A stretch of 45,186 bases of DNA, from NCBI GenBank assembly GCA_033764315.1, contig JANRJA010000105.1, positions 1 to 45,186 on the forward strand, in the 5' to 3' direction. Position numbers and translations under genes: made by a program. The DNA comes from Oculatellaceae cyanobacterium bins.114 (GTDB taxonomy: Bacteria > Cyanobacteriota > Cyanobacteriia > Elainellales > Elainellaceae). Positions 27,057-29,106 of this stretch are shown here, in pieces. Numbering within the stretch: position 1 is the stretch's first letter; each line of letters starts with the position of its first letter. The notes below the pieces were generated by a model. The model ran no database searches, was not told the DNA's origin, and saw only the letters and a program-made list of their open reading frames with translations.

Positions 27057-27416
27057 ATGATACCAACACAACAAGATTTACTGACGCAAGCTTATGCTGC
27101 TTTTAACGATCGTGATATCGATGCGGTGCTTGCAGTAATGCACCCCAAAGTCGAGTGGGCAAACGGCATGGAAGGCGGTCATGTTTACGGACATGAAGCT
27201 GTCCGAGAGTATTGGACTCGTCAATGGCAATTAATTAATCCACGGGTTGAACCACAGGCATTTCATCTGGATGAGAACCAGCGAATGGTAATTGATGTTC
27301 ATCAAGTGGTACACGATTTAGACGGGAATCTGATTGTTGATCAGATCGTTCAACATCTCTACACCTTCGAAGATGGATTAATCCGTCGCATGGATATTCA
27401 ACAGCCAACCCTCTAA
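27057..27416 (+). CDS. SnoaL-like / NTF2 family protein
   Basis: AYAAFNDRDIDAVLA...WANGMEGGHVYGHEAVREYWTRQW...IRRMDI. Confidence 0.88.
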   Translation: MIPTQQDLLTQAYAAFNDRDIDAVLAVMHPKVEWANGMEGGHVYGHEAVREYWTRQWQLINPRVEPQAFHLDENQRMVIDVHQVVHDLDGNLIVDQIVQHLYTFEDGLIRRMDIQQPTL

Positions 27417-27482
27417 AAGTGTTCTTGACTTTGAGCAATCCTCATTCACGATTCACCTTCACCACCCTGAATCAATAGCATC

Positions 27483-27713
27483 TGTACAGTGACTTTTTAT
27501 CTGTCATGAAGACACATTAGTGTTGTAAAGAGACATTAGTGTCGTTCAAGACGCAAAGCTAAGCTGGCTTATTTTTCTGCCTTAAGCCAGCTTGGCAACT
27601 CTAATGACCTAATGTTATGTTGCTGAACAAACTCTCTTTGCGAGCCTTTGATAGAGAGGACTTTGCTCAGCGACATGAATTTGTTCCAATGTTATTTAAT
27701 TTGGCACTGTACA
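27483..27713. mobile_element. 231-bp gene-less mini-transposon with Tn7-like (TnsB-type; V-K CAST-like) ends
   Basis: TGTACAGTGAC at 27483 and GGCACTGTACA ending at 27713. Internal GAC(A)-N-TGTC/TGTT repeats resemble TnsB sites (GACACATTAGTGTTG, GAGACATTAGTGTCG, GCGACATGAATTTGTT). Confidence 0.75.
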
Positions 27714-27891
27714 GATCTCCCACAAAACTTGACATATTTTCTGGTACCGCCTGGTAGGAGACGATGAAGCAGGGCAGATGTCTGCCTTAGGATAGGGCTA
27801 AAGCGAGTAGTTGTTAGAGAAAATCAGTAGCTGGTGTGAGTCATGAGCGCGATCGCCCATGCTAGATTGCTGACATTGAGTACAGACGAAT

Positions 27892-29106
27892 ATGAATATG
27901 CGTTTGATTCCTCATTCTGCGTGGGTGGTGATTGTCCTTACCTGCGGTTATTTAGCGAGTTGTACAGGTTCACCGAACAATTCAGCTTCTACAACTTCTG
28001 ATCCATCCTCAACCAGTGAGGTGGTTTCGCCGACCCCAGAGACTTCTCCATCAGTTGTATCAGGAGAAGTATTTTATCAACAACTGTTAGGTCAGTATGG
28101 CGAGGATTGTACTGAATGTCTTCAACCGATTAAAGTTCAGCTCCAGGATAGCAGTTTCTCTGACACGGGCAATCCGCCTGTCGCTCAACCGGTCAACGTC
28201 CTGATCGCACTGGATTCTTCCGGTTCAATGGCTGAACGTGTCACTGGTGGGGAGAAAATGATGGTTGCTAAGGCAGCAGTCACTCAGTTCGTCCAAAAGC
28301 TGCCCAACACTGCCAATGTGGGGCTACTGGTTTATGGTCACAAAGGCTCGAATCAGAAGGCAGACCGAGCCATATCCTGTGCGGGGATTGATACGATTTA
28401 TCCAATTTCGCCCCTCAATCAAGCAGAGTTTACGGCGGCTGTCAACTCTGTGCAGCCGACAGGTTACACGCCAATTGCGGCAGCATTGCAAAAGTCCGAG
28501 GAAACAATCAAGGCAAGTACCAGAGAAGCTGCCCAGAATGTTATTTTTGTGGTTTCTGACGGGATTGAGACTTGTAATGGTGATCCGGTTGCGATCGCCC
28601 GACGATTACACAGTTCGCCCACCCAAGTCATCATTAATGTCATTGGTTTTGATGTCAATAACGAAGCCCAACAGCAGTTACAAGCGGTTGCCAATGCGGG
28701 GGGTGGCAAGTACTTCTCAGCTCGTAGTGCAGCCGAGTTAAACCAGATTTTTGACCGCAGCAAAACCTTAGCTGAACTGAATCGCTATCGGGCGACGAAT
28801 TTGCGAAATCGTAATCATGTAGCAGCCGTGTTGACGCAAGCCTCAAACCAATTAAATGCTTGTATCTTACAAAAGCAGAATCGGGAGCGAGCCAATATCC
28901 TGATGGTACTTAACCGTATGCCTCTCAACGACCCGAATGCTCAATATCGCGGCTATGTGCAGGAACGATTAAGCGATCGCCACCAAAAAATTACAGCATG
29001 GCGCGAACAGCTCAGTCAAGATATTATTAACAACCGAGATATCAAGATTGAGCAATTGGAACAGGATTTGCAGCACGTAACGAGTACAGTGGAGGGCGAT
29101 CTGTGA
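27892..29106 (+). CDS. vWA-domain lipoprotein
   Basis: Signal peptide with LASC lipobox, Ser/Thr/Pro linker, MIDAS DSSGS, GYTPIA and VSDGIETC motifs. Confidence 0.88.
   Translation: MNMRLIPHSAWVVIVLTCGYLASCTGSPNNSASTTSDPSSTSEVVSPTPETSPSVVSGEVFYQQLLGQYGEDCTECLQPIKVQLQDSSFSDTGNPPVAQPVNVLIALDSSGSMAERVTGGEKMMVAKAAVTQFVQKLPNTANVGLLVYGHKGSNQKADRAISCAGIDTIYPISPLNQAEFTAAVNSVQPTGYTPIAAALQKSEETIKASTREAAQNVIFVVSDGIETCNGDPVAIARRLHSSPTQVIINVIGFDVNNEAQQQLQAVANAGGGKYFSARSAAELNQIFDRSKTLAELNRYRATNLRNRNHVAAVLTQASNQLNACILQKQNRERANILMVLNRMPLNDPNAQYRGYVQERLSDRHQKITAWREQLSQDIINNRDIKIEQLEQDLQHVTSTVEGDL

Follow-up and report, generated by a model that had tools for sequence, protein, structure and literature searches.

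Type V-K CRISPR-associated Tn7-like transposons (CASTs), carried by cyanobacterial hosts, have no TnsA and form cointegrates, according to a survey of cyanobacterial Tn7-like elements (PMC9881144). For ShCAST, the number of TnsB sites is three at the left end and five at the right, and the primers printed in the ShCAST TnsB structure paper begin at the same terminus as the element described here (PMC9527255). Bacterial MITEs, including cyanobacterial Nezha (PMC10969869), are short, gene-less, multi-copy elements with terminal inverted repeats and a transposase acting in trans. They form subfamilies with common ends and differing interiors; classic MITEs originate from insertion sequences, and every copy has its direct duplication. 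Tn3-derived TIMEs are also miniature derivatives of a replicative transposon, for which cointegrates are expected on mobilisation; they belong to another transposase superfamily and have another end architecture. Engineered mini-Tn7 and mini-CAST donors (mini-McCAST, PMC9881144) consist of two ends around a passive insert, with the proteins supplied in trans. No description of CAST- or Tn7-derived miniature elements was found in the main texts of the open-access literature. The words "miniature" and "MITE" are absent from the accessible part of the above survey (PMC9881144); in the accessible part of a 2024 review of prokaryotic MITEs (PMC10969869), Tn7 is present in a sentence on attTn7 targeting and in a reference-list entry, and not among miniature elements.

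The window, i.e. the whole stretch of DNA analysed (45,186 nt), belongs to a draft genome of 6.64 Mb (251 contigs, 90.7% complete). It contains one short element, the features and neighbours of which are as follows (TnsB-type sites are predicted).

27057..27416, + strand: gene of a SnoaL-like protein, upstream neighbour, outside the element (Pfam PF12680, E 8.3e-12).
27483..27713, + strand: whole miniature element, 231 bp, written with the left end first, as is the convention for the family.
27483..27507, + strand: left terminal TnsB-type site (TGTACAGTGAC...TGTCAT); the first 47 nt are identical at 34/47 positions, ungapped, to the left end of the natural CAST L176.
27508..27545, + strand: two inner left-end sites (GACACATTAGTGT(T/C)GT), found by repeat detection, one of them present via a 19-nt tandem duplication.
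27558..27596, no strand assigned: interior hairpin 1, with 14-nt arms (27558-27571 and 27583-27596, 93% complementary) and an 11-nt loop.
27623..27670, no strand assigned: interior hairpin 2, with outer arms 27623-27632 and 27661-27670; 81% of cells are paired across the family.
About 27669..27688, - strand: inner right-end TnsB-type site, placed by family alignment and end comparison.
27689..27713, - strand: right terminal site, TGTACAGTGCCAAATTAAATAACAT on the - strand, with 1 mismatch to the family right-end pattern.
27892..29106, + strand: gene of a VWA-domain protein, downstream neighbour, outside the element (Pfam PF00092, E 8.3e-17).

The element is intergenic, located between the SnoaL-like and VWA-domain genes. 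It begins with TGTACAGTGAC at 27483 and closes with GGCACTGTACA at 27713, and the 231-bp distance between termini given in the initial annotation of this DNA is correct, as are its internal hairpin and its lack of coding content: no ORF of 60 aa or longer is contained in the 231 bp, and the only frame noted (46 aa, 27617-27757) extends out of the element. The same annotation counted three or four repeats in the left end. A terminal and two inner sites are indeed present, but the third site is due to a tandem repeat of 19 nt (27502-27520 and 27521-27539, 79% identical) that is private to this copy, being missing in 21/21 other aligned copies (alignment columns 32-50); the family has two. On the right, where two or three repeats had been proposed, two were found and no third. 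Its remaining statements on the locus, that no tRNA adjoins the element and that the flanks form no clean duplication, also stand: a tRNA search over the whole window found none, and the 5-bp flanks (GCATC and GATCT) are identical at 1/5 positions. One copy is present in the genome. Of only four occurrences of the 11-mer pattern TGTACAGTGNC in the 6.64 Mb, two are the ends of this copy, and the remaining two have unrelated, non-end-like sequence behind them. TGTACA itself is rare in this genome (only 505 occurrences in 6.64 Mb, several-fold below a hand estimate from base composition), a scarcity that might be due to a restriction system. No empty site for the locus was found in relatives, which have in common with it only the upstream SnoaL gene and not the neighbourhood.

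The element shares with V-K CASTs such as ShCAST and L176 the TGTACAGTGAC termini, the adjacent TnsB-type sites (about 20 bp, core GACA-ATTA-TGTCGT) and the cyanobacterial hosts; a 5-bp target duplication was seen once for the miniature family, in G114, where it is split over two copies. Unlike V-K CASTs, it carries no tnsB, tnsC, tniQ, cas12k, tracrRNA or CRISPR array, has 2 + 2 sites instead of the 3 left and 5 right reported for ShCAST (PMC9527255), has left-end spacing at both ends and is not located by a tRNA. Like bacterial MITEs it is short and non-coding, with terminal inverted repeats, and its relatives form subfamilies of common ends and differing interiors; the transposase would, as in MITEs and mini-CAST donors, act in trans. 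Classic MITEs differ in their origin and in their duplications, the miniature family having a Tn7-like, CRISPR-guided origin and single copies without duplication. Unlike mini-CAST donors, the family is natural, markerless and spread in wild genomes, and its ends are much shorter (about 47 bp each).

The family is dispersed over several cyanobacterial families. Matches to the whole element or parts of it were found in 11/60 genomes of relatives (66-77% identity, several full-length, up to 10 matches per genome). The left-end 25-mer is present with up to 3 mismatches in 15/57 genomes from the cyanobacterial family of the window genome; for the right-end 25-mer, often with 0 mismatches, the count is 32/401 sampled genomes of the class (by family: f1 13/39, f15 10/39, f23 2/5, f20 2/10, f9 1/39). 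No exact occurrence of the right-end 25-mer was found in viral contigs. The size range is about 170-235 bp (individual copies 168-235 bp), typically 212-215 bp among 22 aligned copies. Strong conservation covers about 45 positions at the start of this alignment and about 50 at its end, and the interior is far more variable. Private deletions (copies of 168, 170 and 195 bp) and private duplications (231 and 235 bp) are present in single copies. Members have 2 + 2 TnsB-type sites. Subfamily B has ends of identical type around another interior. Between near-identical copies, homology breaks off exactly at TGTACA on both sides. Each end is described as a TGTACA terminus with two adjacent, predicted TnsB-type sites of about 20 bp, and the interior as probable filler differing by subfamily. 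Empty sites for the copies in G014, G005 and G020 were not recovered, the flanks being repetitive or rearranged in congeners.

Hairpin 1 is weaker in other family members (73% of cells paired), and conservation is all that supports it. RNAalifold pairs only the terminal repeats and one small stem, and a three-hairpin (four-helix) model, no better than shuffles, was rejected. Adoption of the element by the host as a structured RNA or as a regulatory or terminator module would agree with the two interior hairpins common to the family, with the promoter-like match on each strand and with the intergenic location. Such a role is nevertheless very unlikely: paired cells make up 78.3% against 77.4% in shuffles (41/500 shuffles reach the observed value), evidence of covariation is weak, the promoter-like matches are about as many as in shuffled sequence (2, with 1.5 expected), no terminator-like site was found, no Rfam match was obtained over the window at gathering score or over 27400-27800 at E<=1, and subfamily B has a different interior.

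Partial and composite forms were also recorded. Plasmids pNsp_i of Nostoc sp. ATCC 53789 (L378) and plasmid2 of Nostoc sp. HK-01 (L379) carry only the right-end half of a subfamily-B element; both halves are intergenic and unannotated, both plasmids are mobilizable, and plasmids could serve as a spreading vehicle for the family. Units of 51-85 bp, in which left and right terminal sites stand face to face without flanking duplication, are present at L172, L197, L217 (adjoining tRNA-Val) and L358; they may be further-collapsed derivatives or foldback products. Half-elements joined to halves of an IS630-type (DDE_3) transposase gene are present in G014 (L294, L295, L047 and L050; C17:18853-18993, C17:21386-21523, C84:24034-24177 and C84:45311-45440), 100% identical at two loci, with an overlap of about 58 bp of element sequence. 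One family copy (L303, G062:C59:14700-16300) harbours an unrelated miniature element of 131 bp, which has the terminal repeat CAGTAGATCGCAAA, an internal palindrome and its own AGCTT duplication, still intact.

When one genome of each species was scanned for the degenerate left-end pattern TGTACAGTGACNNNTTATNTGTCNT, at least 121 stretches matched, almost all cyanobacterial; in 15/82 oriented segments the start of a TnsB homologue lies about 335 bp inward of the end. L176, annotated in this analysis, is a natural V-K CAST of 8014 bp with the same termini. Its genes encode TnsB (PF09299, rve), TnsC (TniB/AAA_22), TniQ, MerR and Cas12k (NF038191, 924 bits). Only 7 bp separate its right end from tRNA-Val. 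Natural CAST ends from L176, G114 and G032 were used for comparison. The two ends of the small element are identical to the L176 left end at 31-35 of 47 nt, ungapped (random 47-mers of the window, mean 11.8). Both ends of the small element also have the spacing of the L176 left end, with the second site beginning at nt 27; in three CAST right ends it begins at nt 28. As in the natural CASTs, TGT...ACA termini are followed by several TnsB-type repeats in the window copy. Judged by sequence comparison, the ends of the miniature family are the ends of real V-K CASTs.

Two readings had been offered at the outset, a natural miniature CAST derivative and a collapsed scar. The former, with mobilisation in trans, agrees with the L176-like ends, the dispersed family and an insertion in G114, described below, that is matched by three empty sites. 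The latter, an in-place scar of a full-length CAST after deletion of the interior, draws on the existence of end-only units of 51-72 bp, one of which (L217) adjoins tRNA-Val, where CASTs home; loci 7-21 bp from a tRNA are L176, L239, L217, L107 and L108. The window copy has no such neighbour, the 22 aligned copies, which come from unrelated loci and from many genera, have the same interior of about 120 bp, and the G114 insertion lies inside a gene that is intact in three relatives. A scar is contradicted by these observations and is highly improbable.

Flanking sequences were compared for 40 distinct intact small elements from all stored loci, a few of which may be chance pairs of termini. Identical 5-bp flanks (5/5 positions) were found in 0/40 copies; 0, 1, 2, 3 and 4 of 5 positions are identical in 10, 11, 12, 5 and 2 copies, respectively, and the mean of 1.45 is at chance level. 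Other offsets or repeat lengths gave no better result. Flank preference is mild and roughly symmetric (on either side A/T three bases outward, C at -4, G at +4). Copies without duplication include near-identical recent ones, copies in single-copy genomes and copies on megabase contigs (e.g. G373:C1). Because none of the 40 copies has a duplication, its absence is a property of the whole family and not decay of the window copy. The nested 131-bp element serves as a control: its preserved AGCTT duplication indicates that duplications do survive in these genomes.

One insertion event was reconstructed in G114 (family f15), a draft assembly of 130 contigs. Its contigs C37 and C66 carry copies of 213 bp that are 100% identical to each other. 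Among 142 within-genome comparisons of left flanks with right flanks one was identical, the pentamer ACCAC, situated before the C66 copy and after the C37 copy; at the between-genome identity rate of 7/2084, about 0.5 would be expected in 142. The left flank of the C66 copy is open throughout 396 bp and contains the end of GMC_oxred_N (PF00732 113-216; NF002550 185-299). For the C37 copy, the right flank is open throughout 626 bp and contains the remainder, including the complete C domain (PF05199 1-139; NF002550 339-530). Both flanks, joined minus one ACCAC, form a single open frame of 339 aa. In G397 (same genus as G114), G451 and G457 the GMC oxidoreductase gene is intact: the two flanks have matches of 86-93% identity that run into each other and share exactly 5 bp, ACCAC being present once. 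These three empty sites read ...caagACCACgttg... and lack TGTACA. The remaining flank of each G114 copy is unrelated. The ancestral donor locus was not recovered in the genus of G114: the donor-side left flank has no match there, and for the right flank the match to G397 begins only 27 bp outside the element.

The family has therefore moved recently, one copy having entered a gene of G114 with 5 bp duplicated. The three empty sites and the split ACCAC also establish that TGTACA is borne by the element and is not the target, and that the duplication is of 5 bp, as in Tn7-like elements. This bears on movement by another transposase, for example of IS630/Tc1 type, which would duplicate the TA within a TGTACA target. 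Such an origin would be suggested by the palindromic TGTACA with its central TA, by the element halves fused to halves of an IS630-type transposase gene in G014, and by the start of the inner repeat (CAGTG), which is like that of Tc1-like ends. Against it stand the absence of TGTACA from the three empty sites, the 5-bp duplication ACCAC and the fact that complete V-K CASTs are bounded by the same termini. It is scarcely credible, and is ruled out by the empty sites unless the G114 event is atypical of the family.

Considered jointly, the observations make it probable that the window copy belongs to a family of non-autonomous, gene-less, MITE-like elements built from V-K CAST ends, mobilised by TnsB in trans and spread replicatively. 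Under the proposed mechanism, a resident CAST would supply V-K TnsB and TnsC in trans, with or without TniQ and Cas12k. TnsB would bind the four sites and join the 3' ends to the target with a 5-bp stagger. As V-K systems have no TnsA, the reaction would be replicative and would result in two copies with one new junction each (intermolecular cointegrate or intramolecular inversion). Repeated replicative events would leave single copies, the flanks of which never match. The window copy may be a stranded relic of such an event or of horizontal arrival, immobile once the helper was lost, or without a helper from the beginning. No resolution site or resolvase is evident in the element.

The duplication split over the two G114 copies fits unresolved, replicative, TnsA-less transposition. 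The replicative reading is favoured by the lack of duplications in near-identical recent copies, in copies on megabase contigs and in single-copy genomes. It is weakened by an inverted pair in G373, which lacks the predicted shared 5-mer, and as G114 is the only split duplication found, the model rests on one event. The same element and the same TnsB chemistry could instead give simple insertions with a 5-bp duplication, the flanks being swapped later by recombination or by assembly cross-joins. Recombination between two inverted copies reproduces the G114 arrangement (derived here), a misjoin through the 213-bp repeat in the 130-contig draft would yield the same picture, and the genomes are repeat-rich and rearranged around copies. 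Simple insertion is rather unlikely, since all 40 copies lack a duplication, recent ones and those on megabase contigs included, single-copy genomes such as the present one offer no recombination partner and yet have no duplication, and the nested element keeps its AGCTT. For this one event, replicative transposition is not separable from simple insertion followed by recombination or misassembly.

Genes of a helper CAST were not found in the window genome, which is 90.7% complete. No matches were obtained to the TnsB C-terminal domain (PF09299), TniQ (PF06527) or Cas12k (NF038191), nor by tblastn with the four L176 CAST proteins at E<=1e-3. As neither the element nor the genome as assembled has these genes, the window copy is an orphan, at present unable to move by itself. 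Because of the incompleteness of the genome the CAST genes are "not found" rather than "absent", and a helper may be located on unassembled DNA. Relatives often have V-K CASTs: Cas12k is present in 20/57 genomes of the cyanobacterial family and in 72/401 of the class. Among the matches listed, and with right ends classed by eye, it is present in 13/23 genomes with a GTGCC-type right end and in 59/378 others, these counts coming from related and hence not independent genomes. The same trend is present, among the matches listed, within f1 (6/12 against 7/28) and f15 (6/8 against 14/31). Again among the matches listed, 10/23 genomes with GTGCC-type ends, the window genome included, have no Cas12k.

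G114 encodes homologues of both TnsB and Cas12k and has a five-site CAST right end. Over about 9 kb upstream of its best TnsB, no CAST left end of TGTACA type was found, so that no cognate helper is pinned down. At TnsB loci of the window's own cyanobacterial family (L141-L159) the ends mostly start with TGTCG and not with TGTACA. Guide-directed insertion found no support in a small test: 25 spacer candidates from four Cas12k arrays (G032, G010, G062 and G006) have no credible match near any copy, the best (22/26 nt) being located about 770 bp off a copy and in a different genome.

At least five types of Tn7-like end repeats coexist at L141-L159. The locus L335 (G032:C20:1-18800) contains Cas12k (60% identical to that of L176), a CRISPR array of 10 repeats and a right end of the five-site type, and adjoins a tRNA. 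It has no TnsB, TnsC or TniQ in 15 kb upstream, no TnsB C-terminal domain is present anywhere in G032, and the locus may be a guide module without transposase. For many of the Cas12k-model matches the open frame measures 770-870 aa and so exceeds the typical 620-690 aa by about 150-200 aa (e.g. G001:C32:18027-20453, G021:C454:40522-42912 and G036:C1:1551583-1553973).

V-K CASTs are in development as programmable DNA-insertion tools, for which minimal donor ends and cointegrates are practical questions. The family is a natural experiment on minimal ends: 170-235 bp in size, two predicted TnsB-type sites per end, both ends with left-end spacing. Orphan ends of this kind are no proof of a resident CAST and call for caution in annotation. 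It is tentatively proposed, as a possibility somewhat short of even, that the family is a widespread, natural hitch-hiker on CRISPR-guided transposons, that mobilisation takes no more than four TnsB sites within about 95 bp of end sequence, and that each jump, for lack of TnsA, is an unresolved replicative event that splits the 5-bp duplication between two copies and rearranges the chromosome. If true, the family would provide a natural definition of minimal V-K donor ends and would be a driver of inversions and replicon fusions in cyanobacteria. The absent duplications and the one G114 event suggest that wild genomes, too, are shaped by the replicative behaviour observed in laboratory work.
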